Part shown: positions 1 to 57,042 of the stretch, one piece after another
Numbering within the stretch: the first letter of the stretch is position 1
Layout: each line of letters begins with the position of its first letter
IMG/VR virus record: IMGVR_UViG_3300025093_000018
Location: 16,991-80,990 of that record
Length of the DNA: 64,000 nucleotides
DNA from: a virus
Direction: 5' to 3' (one strand)
Notes under the pieces: generated by a model
What the model saw: the letters and a program-made list of their open reading frames with translations, nothing else
Told to the model about the DNA's origin: nothing
The model's database searches: none
Program-made: the position numbers and the translations under genes

Positions 1-1233
1 CCCATCAGACAACACAGTGCAAATCATTTTAGGATATCCTCTAGGTTGAGTGTTTTGAAAGTTATTAATAGTAGATGTTCCGTTAATAGATCTTATACGC
101 CCAAAATTACTAGAACCAGTGCCACCACCAATAAAATATCTATTATTCGATGATTTATCAGCTGTTGAAAACGCATAAATTAAATCATCGTTGGGGGTAC
201 AAATATAAGTTATCATACCTACGTTATCTCCTGATCTAAAATCTGAAAAGTTTTTATTAAATCCAGTAGATGTACCATTAAATTTAAACGTCTGTCTTCC
301 TTTGTAGTTAGAATCATCATATTGTATAGTGGGGTAATTCCATCCATGACTAGATAAATCGTGCGTCCCAGCATAATCATACAATACCACATGAGAAGTT
401 ATTTCAGTTTCAGCTATATCACCAACCTCACAATTTACCGAATCAGCTGTTATACTACTTATTTCATCATAAAATCTCCACTCATTAACTACATCGCTAT
501 TATAATTATCAGAAGCATTATCAAATCTATAGTAAACTATAGCATTAGATATACTACCTTCATCTTTAGGAAAACCATTATTATATATATCAGTTACAGC
601 AGCTGCATTTTTAGCATCACTTGTAATTAAGATATCACCAAACTTACCGTCAAAAAATTCGGTATTACCACCTGAATTGTAATTTAAACACCCAAGTCTA
701 CCATTATCCAATCCCGTGCAATCTGTAAACCATTTTGTACGATCTACATCCACAGCCCATATAGTAGATATATCAACCCCATTCACAAATAAATTAGGTT
801 TAACTCCATCATGAGCCACTAATAAATGTACCCAATTACCATCAGTTGTATCTATAGCGAAGGTAGATCTAATATTCCACTGGGTAGTACCGGCAATACC
901 TAAAGCCACTACAAATCTTCCAAGAGTATCTATTTGGAAGACTAAAAATTCATTAGCATCTGTATCACCAAATGTTATTAATCTGTGAGTAACACCAGCT
1001 ATTACATCTGGTAAATATACCCAAGTAGAAATTGTACCTGTAGTCTGAGATGCAACAGCAGTTAATACATTATCAAAATTAACATACTCATCTGTAACTA
1101 CAGTTAAAGCATTCTTAGTAGAGTATTCACTGATATTTTCAGCACTCCACATATGTAAAGGGCTATACTTATTATATATTACCGGTAAAGACGGAGGCTT
1201 TGCTCCCGCATATAAACTAGAATGAAAAAGCAT
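1..1233 (-). CDS. LamG/concanavalin A-like lectin-domain virion protein (partial, runs off window start)
   Basis: Not in the ORF track. ATG at 1233 overlaps the upstream stop (TAATG) and the frame is open to position 1. Manual translation MLFHSSLYAG... includes TISTWV and GNWVHLLVAHDGVKPNLFVNGV, typical LamG motifs. Confidence 0.75.
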   Translation of the reverse strand, partial: MLFHSSLYAGAKPPSLPVIYNKYSPLHMWSAENISEYSTKNALTVVTDEYVNFDNVLTAVASQTTGTISTWVYLPDVIAGVTHRLITFGDTDANEFLVFQIDTLGRFVVALGIAGTTQWNIRSTFAIDTTDGNWVHLLVAHDGVKPNLFVNGVDISTIWAVDVDRTKWFTDCTGLDNGRLGCLNYNSGGNTEFFDGKFGDILITSDAKNAAAVTDIYNNGFPKDEGSISNAIVYYRFDNASDNYNSDVVNEWRFYDEISSITADSVNCEVGDIAETEITSHVVLYDYAGTHDLSSHGWNYPTIQYDDSNYKGRQTFKFNGTSTGFNKNFSDFRSGDNVGMITYICTPNDDLIYAFSTADKSSNNRYFIGGGTGSSNFGRIRSINGTSTINNFQNTQPRGYPKMICTVLSDG

Positions 1234-28551: not shown

Positions 28552-30876
28552 TTAATACATTGGCTTTGGGTCATCAGGATCGGTCATATCTATCCATCTT
28601 ACCCCACCATGTTTTTTAAATTTTTCAGCTTCTAAGAATTGCTCCATCTCATTTCCTCCTTGACCTTTTTTCTCGGGAATTACTCCGTACCTTTTAATTC
28701 TACGACCGTCTGGTAACTTTTCTGTCCAATAACCAAAAGATTGTAATTGTTGAGTTTCTCTTACTGGTGGTTTAGCTACCTTACCCATTAAATCTTCATC
28801 TGATAATTCACATAACCCCATAGCTATTACCATATCATACTTAGTACGATTATCTCTATCATAATCTTGTAGTTGAGCTAGTAAATCCGGAAACCATATT
28901 TTATCATAACTATCATCAATATATGATTTAATTTTACCGTCCATATGATCAATAAGATAAGAACTTACCTGAGTACCTATTAAATTAGAGCTCTTCTTAG
29001 GGTCTCCCCCTTGTAAAGCAATAGATGGTCTCTTCTTTAGTAAGTGATAAAACCCCATATCTCTAAAATAACCAACAATACCAATTTTAGTATACTCTAT
29101 ATTTACTTGAGAGTTATAGTATATGGCCAGCTTAAGTGCATTACCCCAATCATCCCTAACATCGTCAGAACGTTTATTATATTTAGCAACATAAATATTT
29201 GATGTGTATTTAAAGTACCCTTTATCCACAACACGTTTTTTAACCATCATACAAAGTTCAGAACCTTTTTTATTATCTGTTGCGTAAGATGAATCAATAT
29301 TACCTTGATCAATACTATCACAACCGGATACATATAAATCTTTCATTGGTTGTTTCTCGTCGTCAGGTAAATCTGTTATATCCTGCAACCAGTGTGGATG
29401 CTCTAGTATTTCTATATCACCAGTAGTTGGTGCTGGATCCCATTCTACCCCAATAATTTTACCATTCTCAGCTTGTTTCCATTTAAGGAAACCTCTACCA
29501 GGTTTTGGTATATTATCTTTACCAAAGTCAATTGTGGTCCTTTGTGTGGCTATCTTATCCTGATCAAAGATATTTACTCCTGTACGTAAGAATACCTCTT
29601 TAATAGTCATAGGGAATTCTTGTAGAAGCCCCATGTATGCAATTGGGTCTGATTTCTTCTTGGCTCTCTCTTCTTCCGTTTCCATTCTACCTAAAGCTAC
29701 ATCTGGGCATCCACTATCTTCCCAAGTACCAGAACGTTTTATATGTGTTGGGATAAATATTCCACAACCTTTATCGCCAGCTTCTTCCCAATCCCATGTT
29801 GGTATACATTCACTAGCAATAGGATCCATAAATATCCCTTCTGCTTGATCATTTTCTACAGTACCTCCAGTCCCAGAATATAAAACTGTACATTTCTTCA
29901 TACCACCCATTACATACCAAGATCCTCTAGATTCTCTCATGCATGATTTAAGATCTCCTTTTTGTCCTGTAGGTGGGAACGCAGCAAACTCCTCTATTAA
30001 CTGTATAGTAGGACGCTTACCCCTTGTCTTACCGGCGTTTTTACCATAAGTAATTTTTTCCATTTTAGCTAGATACCCTCTATCTTCTGTTGTACCATCT
30101 GGTAATTCTACCACCTCTCCAGAATATTTCATTGTTAGCGAGTCGGTAATACGTTTATGTTTAAGAGCTCTATGTAACTTTTCAATAGCTGTTAAACATT
30201 CCTCAACCTTATTCCAAGCCTCGGAAGTTGTTTCATCATTTGTAGAAGATACTACAGTCCAAGAGTTAGGGAATAATCTATATTCTCTATCCATAATCGA
30301 GCCCCATAGGTATGATTTACCTATACCACGACCTCCCATTAAAGATACATCTTGTTTTGTAAGTCTTGCCTTCCAAGCTATATCAAGTATATATCTATCG
30401 ATATTACAATAAAAAGGATGACCTGGGTCAAAATCAGGAACTAAGTTTCCGTCTTCATCATATTTTGGGACTGGGAATACAAAAACATTTAACCAGTAAA
30501 CCATATAAGGATTCCAATACTCACCATCAACCCAAACACCATGTTTACAATATTCTATAAGATCTCGATACCAATTCTCCATATCTAAAGAATCCGGATG
30601 ATAAGCTGGTAAGTCTCTCCATTGTATTAGTTCTTTAGGTACAGGTCTATATACTAAGTAATCTTTTAAATTAATTTCTTCATTACCTGTTGGACAACCA
30701 TATAATTTATCTGGTACATCAGTAACATCAAACTCACCATTCATGATTTTTCCATCTTTCTTAACTAAGAAATCTAAATCAAACTTATCATAGTCATTTT
30801 CAAACGCAGCTCTTGGAAGTTTATTAATATCAATAAACTTTACCGGTTTTGGTTTATGTAATTCTCTAGTTGTCAT
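28552..30876 (-). CDS. terL: Terminase large subunit
   Basis: Walker A GGRGIGKS, Walker B IQLIEE, YSGTGG coupling motif, nuclease GCDSID and YDMVIAMG. Confidence 0.92.
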   Translation of the reverse strand: MTTRELHKPKPVKFIDINKLPRAAFENDYDKFDLDFLVKKDGKIMNGEFDVTDVPDKLYGCPTGNEEINLKDYLVYRPVPKELIQWRDLPAYHPDSLDMENWYRDLIEYCKHGVWVDGEYWNPYMVYWLNVFVFPVPKYDEDGNLVPDFDPGHPFYCNIDRYILDIAWKARLTKQDVSLMGGRGIGKSYLWGSIMDREYRLFPNSWTVVSSTNDETTSEAWNKVEECLTAIEKLHRALKHKRITDSLTMKYSGEVVELPDGTTEDRGYLAKMEKITYGKNAGKTRGKRPTIQLIEEFAAFPPTGQKGDLKSCMRESRGSWYVMGGMKKCTVLYSGTGGTVENDQAEGIFMDPIASECIPTWDWEEAGDKGCGIFIPTHIKRSGTWEDSGCPDVALGRMETEEERAKKKSDPIAYMGLLQEFPMTIKEVFLRTGVNIFDQDKIATQRTTIDFGKDNIPKPGRGFLKWKQAENGKIIGVEWDPAPTTGDIEILEHPHWLQDITDLPDDEKQPMKDLYVSGCDSIDQGNIDSSYATDNKKGSELCMMVKKRVVDKGYFKYTSNIYVAKYNKRSDDVRDDWGNALKLAIYYNSQVNIEYTKIGIVGYFRDMGFYHLLKKRPSIALQGGDPKKSSNLIGTQVSSYLIDHMDGKIKSYIDDSYDKIWFPDLLAQLQDYDRDNRTKYDMVIAMGLCELSDEDLMGKVAKPPVRETQQLQSFGYWTEKLPDGRRIKRYGVIPEKKGQGGNEMEQFLEAEKFKKHGGVRWIDMTDPDDPKPMY

Positions 30877-31478
30877 TACTCTTCATCATCCCTAAACACG
30901 CCACGTTCTATCATAGAACTTCCCTTATCTCCTCTAACTCTACCAACATTTTCTACTTTCTTAGCTGTTTCCTTGGCTTTTAACATACCAACTGCTAGTA
31001 CTTCTAATTGTTTTACAAATCCAGCAATAGCTCTCTCATTAGTAACAACCTTATCTAGTTGACCGTCTTCATCATGAACAATCTCTATAAAGGGTTCTGT
31101 TTTATTTAATAAAGCACTGATTTCATCAATTTTCTTTTGTTGTACCATAGCAGATCTTTCTAACGCATCCTCATTAAAGTAGTTGTATGCGTCCATAGCA
31201 GCATCTATAAGACTCTGTTCTTTATTAGTGAATGATGTTTTATTGATAGGACCTAGAGCTCTGACCATGGCTTGTCTAGGTTTTTCGCGGTAGTCTACAT
31301 CTTTCATAGGATTGCTGTTTGTAAGATCACAACAATAAAATACGTATAATAACATACGCATGCCTAGCTCTTCTTTGTTCTTTTTACTAGCGTATTCAAG
31401 GATATTAGTAAATTCCTCAATCATAGCTAATTTAGGATCAATAGCTAGTTTACCACCAAGTAGTGTAAACGATATCAT
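30876..31478 (-). CDS. Putative terminase small subunit
   Basis: Helical 200-aa protein coupled to TerL, ending GRVRGDK. Confidence 0.5.
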   Translation of the reverse strand: MISFTLLGGKLAIDPKLAMIEEFTNILEYASKKNKEELGMRMLLYVFYCCDLTNSNPMKDVDYREKPRQAMVRALGPINKTSFTNKEQSLIDAAMDAYNYFNEDALERSAMVQQKKIDEISALLNKTEPFIEIVHDEDGQLDKVVTNERAIAGFVKQLEVLAVGMLKAKETAKKVENVGRVRGDKGSSMIERGVFRDDEE

Positions 31479-31501
31479 ATTCTTCTTATTATCTTATATT
31501 A

Positions 31502-31720
31502 TTATTTCGAATGTACTAAATCTTTAGTATTAAAGATCTGTTCTTGATATTCTCCTTTATTTGTAAACCAAAAACATAAAACACCCATTAGCTGAGGTTT
31601 ATTAGTCTTCTCATCTTTCATTCGACTTTTCTTGATCTCTTTAACGATCATTTGAGGTCTAAACATAATTTCCTGTTTCAACTCTACAACTTCTCCAGGA
31701 ACAAAATATACCATACTCAT
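31502..31720 (-). CDS. YodC/DUF2158-like small protein
   Basis: PGEVVELK...PQMIV...VLCFWF..G.YQEQIF pattern. Confidence 0.6.
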   Translation of the reverse strand: MSMVYFVPGEVVELKQEIMFRPQMIVKEIKKSRMKDEKTNKPQLMGVLCFWFTNKGEYQEQIFNTKDLVHSK

Positions 31721-31824
31721 AACTTATTAACATTAAAATTTATATTACTTTAATATAAGAAAGTTTTTAATAAGGTCAATGGGATTCGCGATTCGCGTAT
31801 TGCATATCGTGATATGGAATATTG

Positions 31825-31897
31825 TTACCCCGCTAGGACTCGAACCCAGATCTGCGGGGCCGTAACCCACTGTTTTATCCAATTAAACTACAAGGCA
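31825..31897 (-). tRNA. tRNA-Arg(ACG)
   Basis: Cloverleaf; anticodon arm GTGGG-TTACGGC-CCCGC; T-loop TTCGAGT. Confidence 0.85.
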
Positions 31898-31903
31898 ATA
31901 TAG

Positions 31904-31974
31904 AGCACCTGGTAGGATTCGAACCTACGTCTGAGGTTTTGCAGACCCCTGCCTAGCCACTCGGCCACAGGTGC
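31904..31974 (-). tRNA. tRNA-Cys(GCA)
   Basis: Acceptor GCACCTG/CAGGTGC; anticodon loop CTGCAAA; U73. Confidence 0.92.
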
Positions 31975-31978
31975 GTAG

Positions 31979-32049
31979 CACGACAGGAAGGATTCGAACC
32001 TTCATGATACGGTTTTGGAGACCGATCAGCACAACCTACGCTCTGAAGT
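31979..32049 (-). tRNA. tRNA-Trp(CCA), two acceptor-stem mismatches
   Basis: Anticodon loop CTCCAAA; T-arm GAAGG/CCTTC; acceptor ACTTCAG/CTGTCGT. Confidence 0.7.
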
Positions 32050-32054
32050 AAATA

Positions 32055-32111
32055 TTGTTATTTATATCCGATTAGTAAGGTTATAAGTGACTAACCAGAT
32101 ATAAATAACAA
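32055..32111. repeat. About 22-bp inverted repeat spacer between tRNA-Leu and tRNA-Trp
   Basis: TTGTTATTTATATCCGATTAGT ... ACTAACCAGATATAAATAACAA; pairs fully with G-U on the minus-strand RNA. Confidence 0.8.
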
Positions 32112-32117
32112 GTTTTG

Positions 32118-32200
32118 TAGCCGGGGCGGGAATCGAACCCGCACGTCCTAGGGACAACGGATTTTAAGTCCGTCGCGTCTACCTGTTCCGCCACCCGGCC
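32118..32200 (-). tRNA. tRNA-Leu(TAA)
   Basis: Anticodon arm ACGGA-CTTAAAA-TCCGT; long variable arm. Confidence 0.92.
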
Positions 32201-32262
32201 ATAGATTATATTTGTTTCATTACCATTCACGTACAGTGAACAGGGACTTTTATTGAACATTG

Positions 32263-32343
32263 TAGCTTCGGTGGGATTCGAACCCACAAACCTCTTGCTT
32301 CTAAGGCAAGGTACTCTTCCATTCGTCTTTACGGCACGAAGCT
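32263..32343 (-). tRNA. tRNA-Leu(TAG), atypical
   Basis: Acceptor AGCTTCG/CGAAGCT; CTTGC-CTTAGAA-GCAAG; short variable loop and enlarged D region. Confidence 0.8.
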
Positions 32344-32348
32344 ATTTG

Positions 32349-32424
32349 TAGCCCTAGAGAGGATCGAACTCTCTTTTCCGCAGTGAAAACGCGACGTCCT
32401 AACCAACAATTAGACGATAGGGCC
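32349..32424 (-). tRNA. tRNA-Glu(TTC)
   Basis: Acceptor GGCCCTA/TAGGGCT; anticodon loop TTTTCAC. Confidence 0.88.
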
Positions 32425-32431
32425 ATAAAAC

Positions 32432-32460
32432 AAAAAACCCCGGTGGTTACCGAGGTTCTT
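32432..32460 (-). terminator. Attenuator terminator of tRNA array 1
   Basis: AAGAACCTCGGT-AACC-ACCGGGGTTTTTT ending about 7 nt before tRNA-Glu. Confidence 0.85.
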
Positions 32461-32500
32461 TAGTGTTTAACTTTAAAACTTTAAATTATGTCAATCAAAT

Positions 32501-32587
32501 TCAAATATCTTTAGCGCATACACCAGAACCTCCGTTGGATTCTTCCAACAGCCATAAACAAAGTTCTAATGTGCGTAATGTTTTCAT
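32501..32587 (-). CDS. Attenuator leader peptide 1, MKTLRTLELCLWLLEESNGGSGVCAKDI
   Basis: Codons 4-16 are L/R/E/C/W in 12 of 13 positions, matching the downstream tRNAs; contains antiterminator ACGGAGGTTCT. Confidence 0.8.
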   Translation of the reverse strand: MKTLRTLELCLWLLEESNGGSGVCAKDI

Positions 32588-32591
32588 ATTG

Positions 32592-32599
32592 CAAATTTA
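32592..32599 (-). promoter_or_regulatory. Bacteroidota -7 promoter TAAATTTG (array 1)
   Basis: TAnnTTTG 4 nt before the leader ATG, implying a near-leaderless transcript. Confidence 0.7.
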
Positions 32600-32626
32600 A
32601 TAATAAAATTTAAAAGTAAAATGGGG

Positions 32627-33073
32627 TTAATCGTAAACTCGAACTTCTATAGTGTGATTTTTATAAAACTCGTTATTTACATAAGTTCCAGCAGAGTTAA
32701 CCATTTCATAATAAATAGTATTTACATCTTCCCAATACGCTAATACGTGACTATTACCATTTTGTGCTGTATTATTATGAAAAACTGCAGTTTTACCTTC
32801 TGTAAATACTCCAGCTAAGGTCATATAATAACCACCTGGGTACCCAGCATAACTCCAAACAGGTGTTCCTCCTAAAGTATTTTCTAATACAGTAGCATCA
32901 GGAGCACTAGTACCTGATTGTGTTAATGTTGCTGTATATACTCTATAGGGTCTTACAGTCTTATTGGCTAAAGCTATAAGTTCCTCTCTAAGTCTATTAA
33001 TATCTTTTACATCTTTACCAGTATGTTGTATATTGGCTTTGATAGAATCTGTAGTATCAGATACTTGTCCCAT
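32627..33073 (-). CDS. Virion-associated protein with VYTATLTQSGTSAP domain
   Basis: YRVYTATLTQSGTSAP..VLENTLG...IEVRVY module recalled from Bacteroidota phage fibre C-termini. Confidence 0.55.
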   Translation of the reverse strand: MGQVSDTTDSIKANIQHTGKDVKDINRLREELIALANKTVRPYRVYTATLTQSGTSAPDATVLENTLGGTPVWSYAGYPGGYYMTLAGVFTEGKTAVFHNNTAQNGNSHVLAYWEDVNTIYYEMVNSAGTYVNNEFYKNHTIEVRVYD

Positions 33074-33099
33074 AATTGATTATTTTTAATTAAATTTTA

Positions 33100-33534
33100 T
33101 TAACTCTTAACTGACCAATCAATTACCATTGCAGCGTCTAATGCGTTAGAAGCGTGAGCATTAAAGATCTTAATAGTAAGGGTATCATCTGTAGGCTCTA
33201 CTTTAGAGATTACAGGCATTCCAGCTCCTGTATAACTAGAGATTACAGCTGTAACAATTGAACCTGTAGTTAGTAAAGTATTAGAAATAGTTAATACAGT
33301 TGCTTCTGTAAGAGCAGCAGTTGATAACGCAGCAGTAGTAGATTTACCAACTGAGTTATTTAATGTAGGTGTTGCACCTGTTGTTGTGTTGTCTGAAGCT
33401 TCACCTGTTAAGTAGTTAGCTACATCAGTCATGAAGTTTCTAAGGGTCGTAGTAAAATCTTTTCTATCTGAATTGTATTGTAAGTCAGCTAAGATTCTAG
33501 TTTTAAGACCCGCGGATCCTGTAATAGTTGCCAT
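33100..33534 (-). CDS. Putative head decoration/fibre protein
   Basis: Ala/Thr-rich beta protein. Confidence 0.45.
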   Translation of the reverse strand: MATITGSAGLKTRILADLQYNSDRKDFTTTLRNFMTDVANYLTGEASDNTTTGATPTLNNSVGKSTTAALSTAALTEATVLTISNTLLTTGSIVTAVISSYTGAGMPVISKVEPTDDTLTIKIFNAHASNALDAAMVIDWSVKS

Positions 33535-33635
33535 AATTTTTTATTTAAAATATTAATTAATATTGTTTATACGACTAAAGAATACAAAAATTTATCGTAA
33601 ATACAAGGTTAATTACAAACTATTTAATTTAAGTA

Positions 33636-35900
33636 TTATTTATAAGGTAATAGATTACTCTTTTTTACTGAGTTTGTTTTAAATTCTGGTAATGTATAAG
33701 CATTTCCAGTCTTTAAATAATCTTGTAACTGGGTAAACTTCTCTTTAATCTTGGTATCTTTTAAATATACTTCTCTAGCTTTAGGCCAATATCTAGCCTT
33801 TTCAAACTCTTCTTCAGTTCCTTCAAACATTAATCCCCTGATCTGTCCATCTATCCAATTCTCTTTAAACTGCTCTTTACCATCTCCCTCTCCATAATCT
33901 TCCTTAGACATTTCCCAATCACGCTCAAAATCTCCTTTATGTTTTTCCAAGAAAGCATCCTCAAATTCTTTTCTATGTTTTTTGTACACTTTATCACTAG
34001 TCATACCATGCATCATATCTAACATGATAGACTGCTCGTTGTTAGTTTTAGGGTCATAGACTATACCATGAGTACCAGGTTTAGGGTGATCATATGAATA
34101 TCCACTATAATAAGTTACTTTTTCTCGTCCTTCTTTAGGACTGAAATACTCTATACTACCAACACCAGTCTTATCTCTTGTGAACTCTGGGTCAGATTTT
34201 ATAGTAACTTCACCCATGTTTTTAAATGCTGGATATTTATTATAGATGTTATCAAGCATTACCCCACCTTGTTGATACTTCAATAACACTCCTCCATTCC
34301 TTTTTGATTGTATTGATACAGCTCCAGATACTCCCACCAAAGGTGTTGTAGTGTAAACAGCATTTAAAAACTGTTTTAGGTCTTTTTTATCTAAATTCAC
34401 TACTAAATTAGTAATATCATTTGGTAAATCTCCTCCTATTCTACTGCTAGATTTTAATTGATCAATGGCTGCATCAGATATATCCCCACCACTCCATAAG
34501 CCCTTTTCTTTTAGATAGGATAGAGCTCTAACACCTCTAACTTGTTGTTCTGGTTTTTTATTTAAATATTCTATTGTACGAATAACTTGTGGATTATCAG
34601 ATTGTTGTCGTATAGTTTTAAAAGGTATCCCTTTCATACTATAGTCAATATTATACGTATTTGAGGCGTGTATAAATTCATGGTTAGCTATATTACTTAA
34701 CTCCTTATTATTAACGTTTTTATCTATACCTAACCAAACATGCGGGTTTTCATCTATAGTAGAAGAAAATCCTAACTGTCTAGTATCTACCCCGGTCATA
34801 TCTTTATACGTAACTTCAGTTTTATTTAACTTATGTAAAGCTATTGCTCTAGCTCTCTTAGCATCAGCCTTACTTTCTTTGGCTACAGACATTCTACGTT
34901 TTAACCATTCATCTGATTTTAACCAATTTTCTTGTTCTTTAAATGCTTTTTGTACTACCTCCAAATTCTTCTTACTTGGTATCACAGTAGGTGTGTTTAA
35001 TAAATCTTTCTTTTTATATAATTGCTTATTTATAATATGTTGTTGTTTATCTTTTGGAGACTTTTTAACTATTTCCCAAAACTCTCTATCTTTTGATGTT
35101 AATAATTTAATTTTATCATTTGATAATTTTAATATATCATCAACTGACTTAATATTATTAGTATTTGTATTTAAAGCGTCATATACATTTTTTACACTAC
35201 CATCCTGATTATAATGTATAGTTCTCTTTGTATCTATCTTTGCTTTACCTTCTGGGGATAAAAAAGAATTAAATATTTCCTCTTCTTTACTATAAATCGG
35301 TTTCTTTTTAGATAAATAAGGTTCTAATTTAGGGTCAAGAGTTGTTTTATTTAGTTTAGGATATATAACTGTTCCTTTATATACTTTAGGTGAAGGGGAT
35401 TTTCTTAGTAATCCTAAACCACTCTTACTTACAGGTTTAACATACTTACCAAGTTTAAGAGTATGCGCTGCTGCACCTATTTCTGGGGCTACAGCAATTA
35501 CATCTAAAGCTTGATCAACACCTTCCCAATAAGGGCTCTTAGTGATAGGATTTACATAAGACATTTGAGCGTACATAGCTGAACCTGGGTTTGCGTACAT
35601 AGTTAAATCTGCGGCAGTCTTCGCGGTACCTTTTGCTGTCCCTACAGGGTCATCTATAATTCTTGTCATAGAATTAAACGGTGTTATATCACCTAAAAAA
35701 TTCATAACACTATGACCTATTTGATCTAATTCTTCAGTTGTAGACTTAGATTTAACTGTAAATTCTGATAAATCAGGTGCCTGATAAACATCTGTTTTAG
35801 GGTTATACTTAGTTACGGTACCTTTTTTATAAGCTTTTTTATAATCAGAAGTTCCGTATTTAATCCCGCCACCTTTTTGGTATTTTAATAATATACCCAT
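33636..35900 (-). CDS. Multidomain protein with zincin HExxH motif and KYQxGG motifs (putative virion cargo)
   Basis: NHEFIHA...PEQQVR; MGILLKYQKGGG and GGVLLKYQQGG. Confidence 0.55.
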   Translation of the reverse strand: MGILLKYQKGGGIKYGTSDYKKAYKKGTVTKYNPKTDVYQAPDLSEFTVKSKSTTEELDQIGHSVMNFLGDITPFNSMTRIIDDPVGTAKGTAKTAADLTMYANPGSAMYAQMSYVNPITKSPYWEGVDQALDVIAVAPEIGAAAHTLKLGKYVKPVSKSGLGLLRKSPSPKVYKGTVIYPKLNKTTLDPKLEPYLSKKKPIYSKEEEIFNSFLSPEGKAKIDTKRTIHYNQDGSVKNVYDALNTNTNNIKSVDDILKLSNDKIKLLTSKDREFWEIVKKSPKDKQQHIINKQLYKKKDLLNTPTVIPSKKNLEVVQKAFKEQENWLKSDEWLKRRMSVAKESKADAKRARAIALHKLNKTEVTYKDMTGVDTRQLGFSSTIDENPHVWLGIDKNVNNKELSNIANHEFIHASNTYNIDYSMKGIPFKTIRQQSDNPQVIRTIEYLNKKPEQQVRGVRALSYLKEKGLWSGGDISDAAIDQLKSSSRIGGDLPNDITNLVVNLDKKDLKQFLNAVYTTTPLVGVSGAVSIQSKRNGGVLLKYQQGGVMLDNIYNKYPAFKNMGEVTIKSDPEFTRDKTGVGSIEYFSPKEGREKVTYYSGYSYDHPKPGTHGIVYDPKTNNEQSIMLDMMHGMTSDKVYKKHRKEFEDAFLEKHKGDFERDWEMSKEDYGEGDGKEQFKENWIDGQIRGLMFEGTEEEFEKARYWPKAREVYLKDTKIKEKFTQLQDYLKTGNAYTLPEFKTNSVKKSNLLPYK

Positions 35901-35938
35901 ATCTAGGTAATGTACAAAAAATTATTAAAAATATAAAG

Positions 35939-36012
35939 TACTCCCGGTAGGATTCGAACCTGGAACCGTCCCCTTAGAAGGGGGATGCTCTATCCAGTTG
36001 AGCTACGGGGCC
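35939..36012 (-). tRNA. tRNA-Arg(TCT), apparently chimeric 3' end
   Basis: Canonical D and anticodon arms (TCCCC-CTTCTAA-GGGGA); T-stem CCAGG/CCTAC and acceptor GGCCCCG/CGGGAGT each carry two mismatches. Confidence 0.7.
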
Positions 36013-36016
36013 AAAT

Positions 36017-36049
36017 AAAAAAGCCCCGGAACTTTGTAGTCCGAGGCTT
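36017..36049 (-). terminator. Attenuator terminator of tRNA locus 2
   Basis: AAGCCTCGGA-loop-TCCGGGGCTTTTTT just before tRNA-Arg. Confidence 0.85.
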
Positions 36050-36074
36050 CCTGTTATATATGAATTATTCTTAC

Positions 36075-36167
36075 TTACATATTTACAAATACAGATAGCC
36101 GCGGACTCCGTCTCGAATCGACAGTTCCGTTACTCTTAATGCCTGTATTTATAATTATTGCTTGCAT
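36075..36167 (-). CDS. Attenuator leader peptide 2, MQAIIINTGIKSNGTVDSRRSPRLSVFVNM
   Basis: Preceded by promoter-like TATATTG; contains AGTCCGCGGCT complementary (10/11) to terminator 5' arm AGCCTCGGACT. Confidence 0.75.
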   Translation of the reverse strand: MQAIIINTGIKSNGTVDSRRSPRLSVFVNM

Positions 36168-36199
36168 GTTGATTGCAATATAAATATTAAATTTTAAAC

Positions 36200-36799
36200 C
36201 TAAAAGGTCTTAGAATAATTTTTTAGCTTTTCTTTATCAGAACTTGAAAATTTAGATGAGTAGGTTAGGTTACCTTCTTCGCTCATTATATAATCCTCTG
36301 TACCACTATGGTATAAACCAAATAGATGTCCAAACTCATGTATAATAACCCTTGAACAATCCTTATTCGAATCCTGAAGACTGAGATCTACAAGGGCTAC
36401 AGCCTTTAAAGTACCTATACAGTTAGTATGAGCTGCTCCTATAACATCTTCGTCACTTCTACCTGTAATATACAAACTTATATCGGCCCAATTATTAGTT
36501 AACCTTTTAATAGAGGCTATTACAGAAAGATACGGGTTATAATCACTACCTCCATATGTAAAGGTAGAAATTTTAAAGTGGATGCCTACTTGAGCATATA
36601 CATTATTAACGTGGATCATAATCTCTTTAAGATCACTATAAGTTTTACTGGATGTGGTATCTACAAAGATATTTACGTTATAATGTTGGGTAGCTACTAA
36701 CTCCTGCGCATTAGATTTCAACACAGGATCAATTTTATATTGCCCTAGTAATGTAAAGCTGCAAACAAATAAGGCTAAAAATAATAAAAGTTTTTTCAT
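36200..36799 (-). CDS. Secreted metzincin (M12/reprolysin-like) zinc metalloprotease
   Basis: Signal peptide; HEFGHLFGLYH; Met-turn YIMS. Confidence 0.85.
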   Translation of the reverse strand: MKKLLLFLALFVCSFTLLGQYKIDPVLKSNAQELVATQHYNVNIFVDTTSSKTYSDLKEIMIHVNNVYAQVGIHFKISTFTYGGSDYNPYLSVIASIKRLTNNWADISLYITGRSDEDVIGAAHTNCIGTLKAVALVDLSLQDSNKDCSRVIIHEFGHLFGLYHSGTEDYIMSEEGNLTYSSKFSSSDKEKLKNYSKTF

Positions 36800-36869
36800 A
36801 ATTTAAATCATATTTACATTCTCATAGTACTAAGGTAACACTTTTTATTTGAATAAAAAAGTGTAATTG

Positions 36870-36940
36870 TTACCAGGAGAGGATTCGAACCTCTACCTTC
36901 TGGACCAAAACCAGACGTCCTGCCATTAGACCACCCGGCA
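36870..36940 (-). tRNA. tRNA-Gln(TTG)
   Basis: TCTGG-TTTTGGT-CCAGA; U1-A72 acceptor. Confidence 0.9.
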
Positions 36941-36946
36941 ATTTTG

Positions 36947-37019
36947 TGGACGAGGGCGGATTCGAACCACCGACGCTAGGCTCTTCAGGCCCACGCTCTA
37001 CCAACTGAGCTACTCGTCC
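36947..37019 (-). tRNA. tRNA-Phe(GAA)
   Basis: GGACGAG/CTCGTCC; anticodon loop CTGAAGA. Confidence 0.92.
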
Positions 37020-37025
37020 AGTTTA

Positions 37026-37114
37026 GGGTGTACGATGGGATTCGAACCCATGACGTGTCACTAACCGTACCGGGACCACAACCCAGCGCCTTCGACCGCT
37101 TGGCTACGCACACC
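37026..37114 (-). tRNA. tRNA-His(GTG) with unusually long variable region
   Basis: G-1/C73; CTGGG-TTGTGGT-CCCGG; about 18-nt variable region. Confidence 0.85.
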
Positions 37115-37120
37115 ATGTAG

Positions 37121-37202
37121 TGGGACCGGGAGGACTCGAACCTCCAAGCCGTTAGGACCCGGGTTACAACCGGGGACGCTACCAATTACGCTCTACGTTC
37201 CC
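37121..37202 (-). tRNA. tRNA-Tyr(GTA)
   Basis: CCCGG-TTGTAAC-CCGGG; long variable arm. Confidence 0.87.
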
Positions 37203-37318
37203 ATATTATATACGATCACATATAATCCCCGATATATCAGGTAATTTTATAATATTATACCCGCTATAGCATGGTTTTATATGTTTTACATATATTATAC
37301 CCTAATAGGTATAATTTG

Positions 37319-37392
37319 TGGAGCTACCGGGATTCGAACCCGGAACCTCTTCCGTGCAAAGGAAGCGCTCTTCCAGTTAGAGCTACAGCCCC
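37319..37392 (-). tRNA. tRNA-Ala(TGC)
   Basis: GGGGCTG/TAGCTCC with G3-U70; anticodon loop TTTGCAC. Confidence 0.93.
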
Positions 37393-37397
37393 ATATG

Positions 37398-37471
37398 TAG
37401 CGGGGGCGAGATTCGAACTCGCGTCCTTCGGGTTATGAGCCCGACGTCCTAGACCCCTAGACCACCCCGCT
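37398..37471 (-). tRNA. tRNA-Met(CAT), initiator-like anticodon stem
   Basis: TCGGG-CTCATAA-CCCGA with three G-C pairs. Confidence 0.88.
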
Positions 37472-37474
37472 AAG

Positions 37475-37547
37475 TCGAGTGAGCTGGATTCGAACCAGCG
37501 AATTCGTGCTCCCAAAGCACGCCCGTATAGCCTCTGCGTACCACTCG
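37475..37547 (-). tRNA. tRNA-Pro(TGG)
   Basis: CGAGTGG/TCACTCG; CGTGC-TTTGGGA-GCACG. Confidence 0.85.
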
Positions 37548-37556
37548 ATATAATAC

Positions 37557-37587
37557 AAAAAGCCCGAACTCTTTAAGAATCCGGGCT
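37557..37587 (-). terminator. Attenuator terminator of tRNA array 3
   Basis: AGCCCGGATTCT-TAA-AGAGTTCGGGCTTTTT ending about 10 nt before tRNA-Pro. Confidence 0.85.
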
Positions 37588-37614
37588 AATCAGCTTAGTA
37601 TATGTATGATCACA

Positions 37615-37692
37615 TTATAACACACTAATATCACCCAGAGAGCTAAAGGCCATCGGCTGAAAATAAAATGCGTTATGTTGTGTTTTTCTCAT
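37615..37692 (-). CDS. Attenuator leader peptide 3, MRKTQHNAFYFQPMAFSSLGDISVL
   Basis: Codons 5-16 are Q/H/A/F/Y/P/M in 11 of 12 positions, exactly the seven downstream tRNA specificities. Confidence 0.82.
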   Translation of the reverse strand: MRKTQHNAFYFQPMAFSSLGDISVL

Positions 37693-37725
37693 TGAAGTTA
37701 TTTCTTCGTTTTGTTTATCGTACTG

Positions 37726-37733
37726 CAAATATA
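37726..37733 (-). promoter_or_regulatory. Bacteroidota -7 promoter TATATTTG (array 3)
   Basis: Exact TAnnTTTG upstream of leader 3. Confidence 0.7.
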
Positions 37734-37772
37734 AATATATGTTTTTAATCTACAAGGTACTAAATAAAAATT

Positions 37773-38504
37773 TTAAATATCTGTTACATCAGGTAATGCT
37801 TTATATGTCTTCAATTCTTCTTCAGCCTTTAATCTAAGCTGTCTCTCCTTCAACCCCATAGATTTCCATTTGGCCTCACTTTGTACAGCTCTAGAGTACT
37901 CGTATTCGGCTTCATCTATTACTACAGCATAGATATTTATTGTGTCTTCATCAGATACATGGCCTAACGATTTAAGCTTTTTAGCTAAATCATTTAAAGC
38001 TTTATTTGTAAAACCACAGGGCTTGACTCTGTTACTTTTTGCATCATTAAATTCTATCTCCTTGCCTGTTTTTACCGTATAGATGTATAGTTGTCCTATC
38101 ATTAACTTCTCTTCCCAGGTAAGATTCTTTGAATTAAGAAAAGCACTGGGGATCTTCATCACATCTCTATAACTACTGCTTACTCTATACTTGCCATTAG
38201 ATATCTTCCCAAGGACACCGAGTTCTTCAAGATCTTTAAAAGCTCTTTTGATCGTACTAAGTGATGCTCCAGTAATTTCCGCTATCTCAGACCTATTAGG
38301 CAATGTTAAGGTATTTGATCTCGAATCATAAACACCTATTGTTTTAAGTATGGCTAGTACCATTAATTGTTTTGGATAATTAATAAAACCATCAGGTAAT
38401 GTTACATACCCTCCGGTTCTTAATGTGGCTTTCATACCACCAACCCCTTTAAAGGTTACAGGACTTCCGTCGTCCTTTAGTGCATTAAACTTCTTCATTT
38501 CCAT
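37773..38504 (-). CDS. Winged-HTH DNA-binding protein, RepL-like replication initiator candidate
   Basis: RSEIAEITGASLSTIKRAFKDLEELGVL..GKYRV wHTH plus a second HTH-like segment; TATATTTG immediately upstream; adjacent direct repeats. Confidence 0.6.
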   Translation of the reverse strand: MEMKKFNALKDDGSPVTFKGVGGMKATLRTGGYVTLPDGFINYPKQLMVLAILKTIGVYDSRSNTLTLPNRSEIAEITGASLSTIKRAFKDLEELGVLGKISNGKYRVSSSYRDVMKIPSAFLNSKNLTWEEKLMIGQLYIYTVKTGKEIEFNDAKSNRVKPCGFTNKALNDLAKKLKSLGHVSDEDTINIYAVVIDEAEYEYSRAVQSEAKWKSMGLKERQLRLKAEEELKTYKALPDVTDI

Positions 38505-38550
38505 AATGCAAATATAAGGAAAATTAATGAATTAAAAAAGGTTCATTTTA

Positions 38551-38775
38551 AAAAGGGTCAGATTTCCTCACCCGTCTTTAAAGGGCTAGAGAGCTTTTAG
38601 TAGTTTTAGTATGGTTCATTTAGGTGTTTTTCGGTAGTTTTTCGGTAAAATTTCGGAAAAAGGGTCAGATTTCCCCCAAAAAGGGTCAGATTTCCTCAAT
38701 GATTTTTGGTAAAATTTTTGGGGTTAAATAGTTGAAAATAAAAACGTTAAAAAGAAAAAGGGTCAGATTTCCTCA
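38551..38775. repeat. Four direct repeats AAAAGGGTCAGATTTCC(TCA), iteron-like
   Basis: Copies at 38551, 38658, 38679 and 38756, plus TTTCGG and GGTTCATTT sub-repeats. Confidence 0.85.
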
Positions 38776-38808
38776 TCTTTTTAACGCTATTATATATTAA
38801 GGATTATT

Positions 38809-39132
38809 TTATTTTGAAGTACTACAAGTAACCCAAAACGGTTGATCAAGTGGTCTATATGTCCAATCAGGTCTACTTAGAATAGGGCCATGGATTGGGC
38901 ACCAGGTTGAGTTCCACCAACCGCATGTACATGTTTGGGAAATATATGGTACTGGAGATGTTACCGGAGGTACGTAAACTTCCTCCTCTACCTCCTCATG
39001 TTTGTCCGTAGATTTGTCGGAAAACTTTGCTAATTTATCTTTAATCTTTTGTACTTGTTCTTCATTTAAGGTCTTAGCTCCTGATATATCAAAGAAACCA
39101 TTTAACCAGATTATAAATTCTTCGTGTGTCAT
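38809..39132 (-). CDS. Hypothetical protein
   Basis: MT.EEFIIWLNGFFDIS...L.EEQV.KIKD.L, a common small phage protein pattern. Confidence 0.6.
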   Translation of the reverse strand: MTHEEFIIWLNGFFDISGAKTLNEEQVQKIKDKLAKFSDKSTDKHEEVEEEVYVPPVTSPVPYISQTCTCGWWNSTWCPIHGPILSRPDWTYRPLDQPFWVTCSTSK

Positions 39133-39308
39133 TTCTTATTAAATATTAAATTAAATTCAAACGTTGTTACAAGGAAAGTAAAACTATACGGCTTTTTACT
39201 CTTTTCATAAATCTCTATATCATCTTCTTCATTATCATGTAATCTTTCCCAGTATTTACTATTTTCAAATATTACCTCAGGGTTATATTCATATTGTTTT
39301 TTCGTCAT
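39129..39308 (-). CDS. Small hypothetical protein (59 aa)
   Basis: Not in track; ATGA overlap with the downstream gene. Confidence 0.45.
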   Translation of the reverse strand: MTKKQYEYNPEVIFENSKYWERLHDNEEDDIEIYEKSKKPYSFTFLVTTFEFNLIFNKK

Positions 39309-39373
39309 ATTCTTCTTATTTTGTACCCACCAACCCGCCCTTTGAGTAAAGCGGCTTCGCCGTGTTTACGATG

Positions 39374-39652
39374 TTAAATCCTATATTTATCCCATTTTGA
39401 ATCAATATCGTCTTCTTGATCTGTAATTTTTATAGATCTTTGATCACGAAGTCCTTTATTAATTATTTCCTCAGGTTCATTTATAGGTTTGATAAAATCT
39501 TGCTGAATGTCGGTATTCGGTTCTGACTCTTGAGATTTGGCCGGCCCAGATTCATCATACATTTCAATATCGTCATCATCATCACTATGTAAGTCATCTA
39601 AACCACTTGACTCTTCACCTTTATCTATGTCATCCCAATCTTTAAAATCCAT
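39374..39652 (-). CDS. Acidic hypothetical protein
   Basis: D/E-rich; LDDLHSDDDD resembles the scaffold termini. Confidence 0.55.
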   Translation of the reverse strand: MDFKDWDDIDKGEESSGLDDLHSDDDDDIEMYDESGPAKSQESEPNTDIQQDFIKPINEPEEIINKGLRDQRSIKITDQEDDIDSKWDKYRI

Positions 39653-39654
39653 AA

Positions 39655-39927
39655 TTAATCTTTTAGTTCATATGTTATTTGTTCCAGGTGTTTAAAATCT
39701 TTTATATCCGCTAAATTAATTCTAACTAACGTGCTACAGGATGCAGCTACATTACATACTTTACCTACCTCTAAAGATACTTCAATTTCTACATAATCCA
39801 CAGCCTCGTCAAAGGTGATCTTCATCTTATTTATACTGCAAATTAATTTGGTTGGGTCGTCCTCCGGACTGAAGACGAAATTCTTTGGTAAGCCATCTAA
39901 GTATTCATATACTTCTTCTATTGTCAT
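39655..39927 (-). CDS. Hypothetical protein
   Basis: ORF; last minus-strand gene before the strand switch. Confidence 0.55.
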   Translation of the reverse strand: MTIEEVYEYLDGLPKNFVFSPEDDPTKLICSINKMKITFDEAVDYVEIEVSLEVGKVCNVAASCSTLVRINLADIKDFKHLEQITYELKD

Positions 39928-40393
39928 ATTATTCTTATCAAGTGATTTAATTTAATTATCAAATCGACTACATACCTAATATAGTGATTTATAACGAAAT
40001 AACCATGGGTATGCTAAAGTAACACTATGTATGTTATACAAGAATCTTCTCTGTTAGTTTTCTGATATACAGGTACTTATATACAAACCCCCGCCCTTTA
40101 TATTAAAGAGGTACTTTATATAATAACCCCCATCGAATTATATTATAGCATGTTAGGAGGTATAAAGAGCTTGTATAGTATGTGACAAGGTGGCAGGAAC
40201 GTGACAAGTTGACATAAATAAGGAAGGGGTGGGGCTAATCTTACAACCTCCCCGGCTAAGTTTCAGTGGGAAAACAATATATATTGAACTTCGATTTATA
40301 TTTTGGAAAACTCCAATCCCAAATTAAATTGCTAAATAATTAGCATTTGTTTCAACAACCCGATAACGGTGTGGGTGCTCATATACATGAGTT

Positions 40394-56106: not shown

Positions 56107-56283
56107 AGATAAACGTTTCGGTAGATTTAGCCGCTTAACGTGGGTGTTGTAGTTTATACCTGTGAAGAGAACCCAAAAACTACAGTCGTCATATACTAAA
56201 ATATGTCCGATAATAAATCAAAGAGAGGGGATTGGCCTTATATTCCCCTCTTTCTTTAAAAAACATTTATTATATTAAAAACT

Positions 56284-56600
56284 TAATTACTGTTAGGCTT
56301 TTATACTTAACTGTTTGGACGAGGGTTCGAATCCCTCCGACTCCACAACGCATCAGTTAGCGAAGGTAGAAAACGCTTGCGTAAACCTACCTAAAAAATT
56401 GGCAGAGTACCCGGAGATACTTGTACACTAAATGGTTGAAATAACCACTGCCAACAATATGGGGTCGTTTTTGGTTTTGACAGCAGAAGACGAGGTATTA
56501 GATAGGTAATTATAATCTCTTAAACGGAGAATTTGATATGGAGCACAATCCATTTATTGTGCAAGAAGAAGCAGTTGCTGAGAAATTGGCAGCCTAATCT
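56284..56600 (+). ncRNA. ssrA: Circularly permuted (two-piece) tmRNA
   Basis: 3' piece first (GAC-GAGGG-TTCGAAT-CCCTC-CGACTCC-A, ending 56345). 5' piece GGGGTCG...TTTTGAC starts at 56461. Acceptor stem has G3-U70. Tag frame 56526-56597 reads GEFDMEHNPFIVQEEAVAEKLAA*. Confidence 0.85.
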
Positions 56601-56604
56601 CATT

Positions 56605-56640
56605 AGTCCCGGTGAAGTATAGTACCCGGGACTTCTTATT
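56605..56640 (+). terminator. Hairpin/terminator closing the tmRNA coding piece
   Basis: AGTCCCGG...CCGGGACT followed by TCTTATT. Confidence 0.55.
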
Positions 56641-56655
56641 GAACTAAAATGAAAT

Positions 56656-57042
56656 ATGGAAAGAGATATTCTAATCAAAAAAATTACAGAAGGTAACCCA
56701 GATAAAACTACAATACTTACTTGGATAAGATCTTTACCTAATTACAATAAATTAAAACCATCTACTTATAAAAAAGGAGATATATTGATGCATCCAATAT
56801 TTGCGCATCCTTATATACTTATTGAATATCATGAAGATAGAGGTTGGATTTGTTGTATGTTAACAAGTAAAGAAGAATGCGATGAAGTATTAGTTAAATG
56901 TAATTCAAGGTTTTTACCTGATTCTTATGTAACTAAAATGTTATTTACAATTAATGAGCCTGTTGGATCTTATATGGGGCCTTATGAAAATAATACTCAA
57001 TTAAATTCTATTATTAGAAAATTAAAGAAAATATTTAAATAA
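56656..57042 (+). CDS. Hypothetical protein (possible SH3/PemK-like fold)
   Basis: KKGDIL...HPYILI...CCMLTS. Confidence 0.45.
   Translation: MERDILIKKITEGNPDKTTILTWIRSLPNYNKLKPSTYKKGDILMHPIFAHPYILIEYHEDRGWICCMLTSKEECDEVLVKCNSRFLPDSYVTKMLFTINEPVGSYMGPYENNTQLNSIIRKLKKIFK

Follow-up and report, generated by a model that had tools for sequence, protein, structure and literature searches.

Amino-acid operons of enterobacteria are controlled by leader-peptide attenuators (trp, his, leu and pheA among them), and some of these are multivalent, with Thr and Ile codons in the thr leader and Ile, Leu and Val codons in the ilvGMEDA leader. The aminoacyl-tRNA synthetase operon pheST is attenuated via a leader containing Phe codons. 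Genes for tRNAs are usually regarded as controlled at the promoter, by growth rate and the stringent response, and the tRNA arrays of phages as constitutive cargo; phage tRNAs have been proposed to replace depleted or cleaved host tRNAs or to offset a codon mismatch. We analyzed a virus record that consists of one contig of 80,990 bp (IMG/VR record IMGVR_UViG_3300025093_000018) and within it a stretch of 64,000 nucleotides (positions 16,991 to 80,990 of the record; the 64-kb window, to which coordinates below refer unless another locus is named). The window contains three tRNA loci on the minus strand, located between positions 31825 and 37733, each preceded by a short open reading frame (ORF) and an intrinsic terminator. 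Comparison with related phages indicates that each of these cassettes is probably a ribosome-mediated (leader-peptide) transcription attenuator that regulates tRNA genes and senses decoding speed.

The cassettes share with amino-acid operon attenuators a leader that appears to be translated and carries regulatory codons, the 1:2/2:3/3:4 alternation of pairings, a terminator ahead of the genes, a stop codon near region 2 and the sensing of several codons. They differ in that they would regulate tRNAs instead of biosynthetic enzymes and would restore decoding capacity, not amino-acid supply. The rosters of the phage leaders cover 5-9 amino acids, mostly with one to three codons each that are chosen by isoacceptor, whereas leaders of amino-acid operons contain runs of one codon; further differences are the location of the cassettes on a phage genome and the probably leaderless mRNA of cassette 1. 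The cassettes would work like the thr and ilv leaders but fall outside those families, since the regulated genes are tRNAs. With pheST they have in common the attenuation of a component of the translation apparatus; pheST differs in responding to one amino acid, in its protein product and in being a cellular gene. As in T-box riboswitches, tRNA status would be sensed and a terminator/antiterminator switch precedes translation-related genes, but a T-box binds one uncharged tRNA directly, without ribosome or ORF, whereas the cassettes would read ribosome speed over many codons. The T-box model of Rfam gave no match at E<=1 in positions 30000-40000 of the window.

Proposals that phage tRNAs compensate for missing host tRNAs share with this view the rationale for such tRNAs and the need to sense their supply; they differ in that no cis-regulatory sensor of an array was found described. 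The nearest functional analogue that we found is the trn operon of Anabaena sp. PCC 7120, a long tRNA array that is silent and is induced when translation is impaired (PMC8421152, in the part of the paper available to us). On this basis it resembles the cassettes as a supernumerary tRNA array under a control tied to the state of translation; it differs in being controlled at the promoter via direct repeats, a putative repressor site, and in being cellular or plasmid-borne (PMC8421152). The terms attenuat-, leader and terminator had no occurrences in the available text of that paper (PMC8421152). A full-text literature search, with subscription-only papers lying outside it, found no published account of leader-peptide attenuation of tRNA genes, phage or cellular.

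The record has a G+C content of 33.5%. Its nearest large terminases (TerL) in INPHARED are those of crAss-like phages of Bacteroides, with 21-27% identity to the window TerL, and the one sequencing run that contains the entire stretch is a marine metagenome; the source is a marine crAss-like phage of about 81 kb. The sequencing runs listed for the stretch comprise two DNA runs from marine metagenomes, one of which may be the source of the record, and no RNA run. A TerL scan of IMG/VR yielded 36 loci with 58-74% identity to the window TerL, a TerL scan of metagenomes yielded 16 further loci encoding a TerL relative, and in a TerL scan of GTDB genomes a relative was not found. Labels such as L003 denote loci of these TerL scans. 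Upstream of TerL, tRNAs are present in eight loci (L003, L004, L006, L023, L024, L025, L026 and L045), of which L045 comes from the metagenome scan and is the only one of its 16 loci with tRNAs. Homologues of the leaders, with hairpin and T-run, were found in six of the eight, all on separate contigs. With the window included, the leader set comprises 14 leaders from seven phages in three families, F1 (n=6, five of them outside the window), F2 (n=4; homologues in L003, L004 and L026) and F3 (n=4; homologues in L004, L026 and L023); conservation of the leaders extends to relatives with a TerL identity of only 62-69%. A preliminary description of the window, which had proposed that attenuators gate the three loci, had made conservation of the leaders in related phages a test of this proposal; homologous leaders and terminators stand before the same arrays in six phages.

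The motif was seen only together with tRNAs. Of the 27 loci in which 2.5 kb or more of sequence precede TerL, 21 contain no tRNAs and no motif, five contain both, one (L024) has two tRNAs but no leader, and a leader motif without tRNAs occurs in none. Pattern scans of IMG/VR for each leader family gave nothing beyond the contigs already found, a metagenome pattern scan for leader 2 had 0 matches, and a blastn search for distant similarity with a 6.9-kb stretch against INPHARED matched only tRNA-sized pieces and an unrelated DUF285 piece.

Layout of the three tRNA cassettes

ARAGORN with default settings detected 11 tRNAs, which occupy three loci on the minus strand of the window, and none elsewhere in the 80,990-bp record. 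The Glu, Trp and Leu(TAG) tRNAs of array 1 were missed by this default run. Glu (32349-32424) was found with Rfam (49 bits); Trp (31979-32049) reached only 25 bits in Rfam, under the cut-off of 29 bits, and was called Trp(CCA) by relaxed ARAGORN. At 32262-32343 relaxed ARAGORN gave an ambiguous tRNA-like call and Rfam no match at E<=1; this segment may be read by eye as Leu(TAG), a reading supported by orthologues in five relatives that are called Leu(TAG). With these additions the loci have the tRNA content given in the preliminary description.

31825-32424, minus strand: tRNA array 1, Glu(TTC), Leu(TAG, non-canonical), Leu(TAA), Trp(CCA), Cys(GCA), Arg(ACG) (ARAGORN, Rfam, relaxed ARAGORN)
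35938-36012, minus strand: locus 2, tRNA-Arg(TCT), apparently chimeric (ARAGORN; Rfam, 41 bits)
36870-37547, minus strand: tRNA array 3, Pro(TGG), Met(CAT), Ala(TGC), a 115-nt spacer, Tyr(GTA), His(GTG), Phe(GAA), Gln(TTG) (ARAGORN, Rfam)

The Leu tRNAs of this clade are non-canonical. Their D region is enlarged, and Leu(TAG) is without the long variable arm (32262-32343, minus strand, in the window; 5513-5686 in L026). The spacer between Ala and Tyr in array 3 (37203-37317, minus strand, 115 nt) contains three to four GGGTATAATAT-like repeats; the corresponding gap in L004 measures about 30 nt.

All three loci have the same order of elements, which confirms the shared minus-strand layout that had been described before: a -7 box is followed by a short ORF starting with ATG (25-30 codons), a G+C-rich intrinsic terminator with a T-run, and the first tRNA. 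The distance from the stem to the first tRNA is about 6-13 nt, instead of the 4-10 nt after the terminator given earlier. The elements of the three cassettes are as follows (dG, predicted free energy of folding).

32592-32599, minus strand: promoter-like -7 box of cassette 1, TAAATTTG, exact TAnnTTTG, 4 nt upstream of the ATG
32501-32587, minus strand: leader ORF 1 (28 amino acids), MKTLRTLELCLWLLEESNGGSGVCAKDI; putative sensor LRTLELCLWLLEE at 32540-32578; region 2 at 32512-32536
32429-32463, minus strand: region 3 and intrinsic terminator 1, dG -17.6, 14-pair stem
36175-36182, minus strand: promoter-like box of cassette 2, TATATTGC, 7 nt upstream of the ATG; TAnnTTGY variant, not the sigma-A consensus
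36075-36167, minus strand: leader ORF 2 (30 amino acids), MQAIIINTGIKSNGTVDSRRSPRLSVFVNM; putative sensor IIINTGIKSNGTVDSR at 36111-36158; region 2 at 36090-36108
36021-36050, minus strand: intrinsic terminator 2, bulged hairpin and T-run, dG -16.7; missed by the consensus terminator scan
37726-37733, minus strand: promoter-like Bacteroidota -7 box of cassette 3, TATATTTG, exact TAnnTTTG; predicted 5' untranslated region of about 29 nt
37615-37692, minus strand: leader ORF 3 (25 amino acids), MRKTQHNAFYFQPMAFSSLGDISVL; putative sensor codons QHNAFYFQPMAF at 37645-37680
37623-37640, minus strand: region 2 of cassette 3, located in the ORF tail; its alternative pairing partners are the sensor part and the 5' arm of the terminator
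37560-37588, minus strand: intrinsic terminator 3, hairpin and T-run, dG -17.9, 12-pair stem, tail TTTTGTATTA

An exact TAnnTTTG is present at most 130 nt upstream in 11 of the 14 leaders (chance 0.084 per 130 nt), and the 4-6 nt spacing between box and ATG of cassette 1 recurs in L003, L004 and L026. The transcriptome study of Flavobacterium psychrophilum, in the part available to us, places the flavobacterial sigma-A box TAnnTTTG at -12 to -5, lists TAnnTTGY as a variant box, reports some leaderless mRNAs and sees 'strong clues' of leader-peptide attenuation at flavobacterial amino-acid operons (PMC9723704). With the box at -12 to -5 and a spacer of 4 nt, the start site of cassette 1 would fall on the A of the ATG, and its mRNA is therefore probably leaderless. 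A scan for sigma-70 promoters found 38 versus 35.8 expected; this lack of an excess is expected of a Bacteroidota-type host.

A consensus terminator scan of 9 kb detected seven sites, and the hairpins of loci 1 and 3 are the two longest of them (14 and 12 pairs). All 14 leaders are followed by a terminator with dG values of -13.8 to -20.8 and a T-run after the hairpin; the leader ORFs have a length of 24-31 codons.

Leader codons and downstream tRNAs

The peptides encoded by the leaders consist largely of the amino acids of the adjacent array. In leader 1, 12 of the 13 residues of LRTLELCLWLLEE belong to the set {L,R,E,C,W}; in leader 2 all 18 residues of IIINTGIKSNGTVDSRRS belong to {I,N,T,G,K,S,V,D,R}, and in leader 3 11 of the 12 residues of QHNAFYFQPMAF to {Q,H,A,F,Y,P,M}. 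Enrichment of the own set was evaluated with a scan statistic, in which every leader ranked first among the 463 ATG ORFs of 15-60 amino acids in the genome, while the ranks for the two sets of the other leaders were 98-461 of 463. The match of leader codons to the own array, which the preliminary description had claimed, is thereby borne out. Small ORFs are frequent, as the number of 463 shows, and the leaders could in principle be ORFs that arose by chance where AT-rich intergenic DNA separates ordinary terminators from tRNA genes. However, among 300,000 random ORFs of genome base composition only 2, 58 and 13 reached the scores observed for the three leaders (P 7e-6 to 2e-4), and with the first ranks and the conservation at 62-69% TerL identity the probability of a chance origin is negligible.

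The match extends to the level of isoacceptors and is confined to the front part of the leaders. Cognate codons make up 12 of 16 front codons in leader 1 (background 0.15, p 1.7e-7) versus 1 of 11 in the tail, with 6/6 tRNAs represented; in leader 3 the counts are 11 of 16 and 0 of 8, with 7/7 tRNAs represented, and across the set the tails are likewise not enriched. Taken over the 14 leaders, 83 of 84 downstream tRNAs have a codon of their own isoacceptor in the front part of the leader, the miss being Leu(CAA) of L026. The Arg codon is CGY in F1, before Arg(ACG/GCG), and AGA in F2, before Arg(TCT). F2 leaders contain ATA and ATT alongside tRNAs with CAT and GAT anticodons, and AGT and TCG alongside Ser(GCT) and Ser(TGA); F1 leaders contain both TTR and CTN codons for Leu.

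Locus 2 of the window encodes only Arg(TCT), yet leader 2 spells Lys, Ile, Gly, Asp, Asn, Ser, Thr and Val, for none of which the phage encodes a tRNA. In L003 the F2 leader (MKNISINTGINKTDKVDSR...) is followed by Arg(TCT), Lys, a tRNA with the anticodon CAT, Gly, Asp, Asn, Ser(TGA), Ser(GCT), Thr, Ile(GAT) and Val; all 18 front codons of this leader are cognate, and 11/11 tRNAs are represented. Array 2 of L004 and L026 resembles that of L003. The tRNA with the CAT anticodon is probably Ile2, since the F2 leader uses ATA. The eight amino acids of leader 2 that lack a tRNA in the window had been noticed from its sequence, and the relatives carry precisely this array behind a homologous leader; since the array matches the codon list of leader 2, the window phage has lost ten tRNAs. 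A leader of this kind is thus an annotation aid, naming the tRNAs that an array holds or once held; here it foretold the lost ten-tRNA array that the relatives have kept.

The remaining tRNA-Arg bears signs of this loss. Read by eye, Arg(TCT) (35938-36012) has a T-stem and an acceptor stem whose 3' strands do not match the 5' half of the gene. The sequence on its 3' side is similar to that following the final tRNA of array 2 in L004, and its Rfam score of 41 bits compares with 50-72 bits for the orthologues. Array 2 was probably deleted by recombination between T-loops of tRNAs, leaving the chimeric tRNA-Arg. The proposed system for all 20 amino acids would exist in relatives or the ancestor and not in the window phage, whose cassette 2 is a relic that would now gate only the chimeric tRNA-Arg.

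The stretch between the array-2 remnant and leader 1 (32627-35900, minus strand) contains three protein genes (754, 144 and 148 amino acids) without a Pfam match, where the relatives have tRNAs. Other ORFs are inserted after Arg(TCT) in L004 and L026, and in L003 a small lipoprotein-like ORF (MKKLILVSALLFMISC..., 655-795, plus strand) splits Arg(TCT) from the remaining array 2. This stretch seems to be a hot spot of gene exchange.

Reading frame, alternative pairings and the proposed switch

The changes in the front parts of the leaders respect the reading frame. ATG and stop codon are retained in 14 of 14 leaders, the front parts contain three indels, every one of 3 nt, and synonymous changes are found (TGT/TGC, CGC/CGT, GCA/GCC, TTT/TTC). 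In L026 an indel of 1 nt changes the frame of the tail, and the nucleotides of region 2 (CTCCGGRGGTTCT) are unchanged. The front of the leaders thus behaves as if constrained as codons and the tail as RNA. The N-terminal parts are conserved as peptide, which would also be expected of functional micropeptides whose composition has co-evolved with the adjacent tRNAs. Against this stand the tail of L026 in another frame, the occurrence of the motif never away from tRNAs, and the coincidence that three unrelated peptides would each have to match the neighbouring array in their amino acids and even in the isoacceptor codons used for Arg, Ser, Ile and Leu; we consider micropeptides highly improbable.

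The same data bear on an element that acts as RNA only, be it a 5' leader whose structure serves processing or stability, a small RNA set free when transcription terminates or an element that binds tRNA directly, in which the ORF would be incidental. Nucleotide conservation is high, third positions included, the tail is constrained as RNA and not as peptide, and termination would turn the leaders into separate small RNAs about 150 nt long. Such an element is nevertheless very unlikely, given ATG and stop in all leaders, front indels in multiples of three and the synonymous substitutions; rosters that match the arrays by amino acid and by isoacceptor are sensible only in a reading frame, and no cis-regulatory Rfam family, T-box included, was found at E<=1. 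Chance ORFs, an RNA-only element and micropeptides were all rejected.

Pairings between leader segments were compared with 300 dinucleotide shuffles, the criterion being that a fraction of at most 0.05 was as good. The duplex of the ORF tail with the 5' arm of the terminator and the bases preceding it (2:3) beat the shuffles in 12 of the 14 leaders, including all three of the window, in agreement with the complementarity seen in the preliminary description; the exceptions are L004 F1 (0.073) and L004 F3 (0.29). In the window the fraction of shuffles as good was 0.000, 0.000 and 0.040 for cassettes 1, 2 and 3, with dG values of -20.2 (z -4.7), -23.5 (z -5.0) and -16.6. Within each family the cognate 2:3 pairing was stronger than non-cognate ones (-17.05/-13.06, -22.27/-17.63 and -15.03/-12.61 for cognate/non-cognate in the three families). 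The F2 antiterminator shows six two-sided pair changes versus 2.4 in shuffled alignments (0/500), with 76% of positions paired versus at most 52% when slid, and the covariation score of the F1 antiterminator is 0.347 versus 0.247 in shuffles (3/500). Covariation for 2:3 is supportive rather than conclusive.

The competing duplex of the front part with the tail (1:2) beat the shuffles in 12 of 14 leaders as well (exceptions L003 F2 and L004 F2), so that the sensor codons can pair over the segment in question, as had been proposed; for cassette 3 its dG is -24.8 and the fraction of shuffles as good 0.000. Region 1 lies inside codons 2-17 and overlaps the regulatory codons. Without a ribosome, the unconstrained minimum free energy structure consists of 1:2 plus 3:4 in most leaders. 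The stop codon lies within region 2 or 0-21 nt past its end, and the ORF ends 20-45 nt upstream of the hairpin.

From these features the following switch may be proposed. Host RNA polymerase would initiate at a -7 promoter of the Bacteroidota type (for cassette 1, on the A of the start codon), and a ribosome would translate the leader as the polymerase proceeds. The leader front (about codons 4-17) would serve as a roster of the codons decoded by the downstream tRNAs. Three alternative structures would compete, 1:2 between roster and ORF tail, 2:3 between ORF tail and the 5' arm of the terminator, and 3:4, the terminator hairpin, whose U-tract adjoins the first tRNA. When decoding is fast, the ribosome would be found at the stop codon in or just past region 2, or would leave so that 1:2 re-forms; in both cases region 2 would be blocked, 3:4 would form and transcription would stop ahead of the tRNAs. 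Should a shortage of the charged tRNA for any roster codon slow its decoding, the ribosome would stall and occupy region 1, and region 2 would pair with region 3. Formation of 2:3 would prevent the terminator, the array would be transcribed and RNase P would free the first tRNA from the leader. The net effect would be a negative feedback on decoding capacity, block by block. Anticodon nucleases, starvation or codon mismatch might act as the physiological trigger.

If this mechanism is correct, a textbook principle would be extended from amino-acid supply to tRNA supply, as a direct feedback sensor of decoding capacity; phages would regulate their own tRNAs on demand, and each cassette would open only upon slow decoding of its own codons. 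It would also bear on the question why phages carry tRNAs, that is, on codon-usage matching versus replacement of host tRNAs lost in infection.

Several observations weigh against this mechanism. Crude folding with a ribosome footprint, which together with folding without a ribosome had been suggested as a check, did not separate 'stalled' from 'at stop'; the 5' arm of the terminator still pairs upstream in both states for many leaders. Since the footprint folding failed to separate the states, the direction of the switch is proposed by analogy to trp/his and from the placement of the stop codon. Covariation was not significant for the F3 antiterminator and no higher than in shuffles for the F2 terminator, in both cases partly owing to the alignment register; the alignments contain 4-6 sequences per family, with structures taken from one member, and some of the phage tRNAs are hard to detect. 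Some conserved front codons are not cognate to the own array, Thr ACA in F1 and Asn AAC in F3; we attribute their retention to the pairing of region 1, where both codons lie.

Leaders may also be outdated. Leader 2 of the window retains codons for the 10 lost tRNAs, and leader 3 of L023 those for His, Phe, Tyr and Met though only the Ala and Gln tRNAs are left. Co-variation of leader codons with the tRNA content, a further check that had been named, was partial: where a roster tRNA is absent or undetected (n=25), the codon was lost in only three cases (Arg in L004, Cys in L045, Pro in L023). The comparison of 3/25 with 0/83 for tRNAs that are present gives a hypergeometric p of about 0.011, from a hand count and uncorrected for phylogeny.

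In L023 and L024, moreover, Arg(TCT) and Met directly follow a peptidase gene and have no leader, and scattered tRNAs elsewhere in the records of three relatives have no leader cassette. The cultured crAss-like phage PhiCrAss001 (L059; MH675552, which we take to be this phage) likewise carries a tRNA array upstream of TerL, with a promoter box and a 4-codon ORF, and without leader or terminator; the array begins about 20 nt past TATCTTTGcatcATG (1640-1683), with a -7 box of the style and 4-nt spacing of window cassette 1. Finally, amino-acid starvation would stall ribosomes too, and extra tRNA would then be useless.

The failure of footprint folding to distinguish stalled from at-stop ribosomes in most leaders would also fit a different logic built from the same parts. 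Translation of the leader might license readthrough, signalling that translation is working, or the hairpins might insulate the arrays while the leader modulates the leak, so that tRNAs are made when translation is good. Because the U-tracts adjoin the tRNAs, transcripts coming from upstream would also end at the hairpins. A licence or insulator is unlikely, however, since nearly all leaders have their stop codon in or just past region 2, and 20-45 nt separate the end of the ORF from the hairpin; a terminating ribosome would therefore sit on region 2 and leave the terminator free. Roster and region 1 overlap as they do in attenuators of the trp/his type, and for a licence a roster of codons matched to the array would be unnecessary.

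Attenuation by slow decoding remains the reading that we favour, and it can be taken further for L004 and L026, although we regard this extension as rather doubtful. Their cassettes would jointly form a decoding monitor for all 20 amino acids at isoacceptor level, which might detect depletion or cleavage of host tRNAs (for example by anticodon nucleases or host shut-off), replace only the affected block and act as the sensing arm of a counter-defence; orphan leaders such as leader 2 of the window may have found a new use in linking virion genes downstream to translation capacity.

Neighbouring features

Arrays 3 and 2 are separated by a gene for a small, secreted-looking metallopeptidase of M10/M12-like type with a HEFGH motif (36200-36799, minus strand). 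A similar HExxH gene lies immediately before Arg(TCT) in L023 and L024. Upstream of cassette 3 a winged-helix/RepL-like protein is encoded (37773-38504, minus strand). On the plus strand, ARAGORN detected a permuted tmRNA (56253-56688) with the tag peptide GEFDMEHNPFIVQEEAVAEKLAA.

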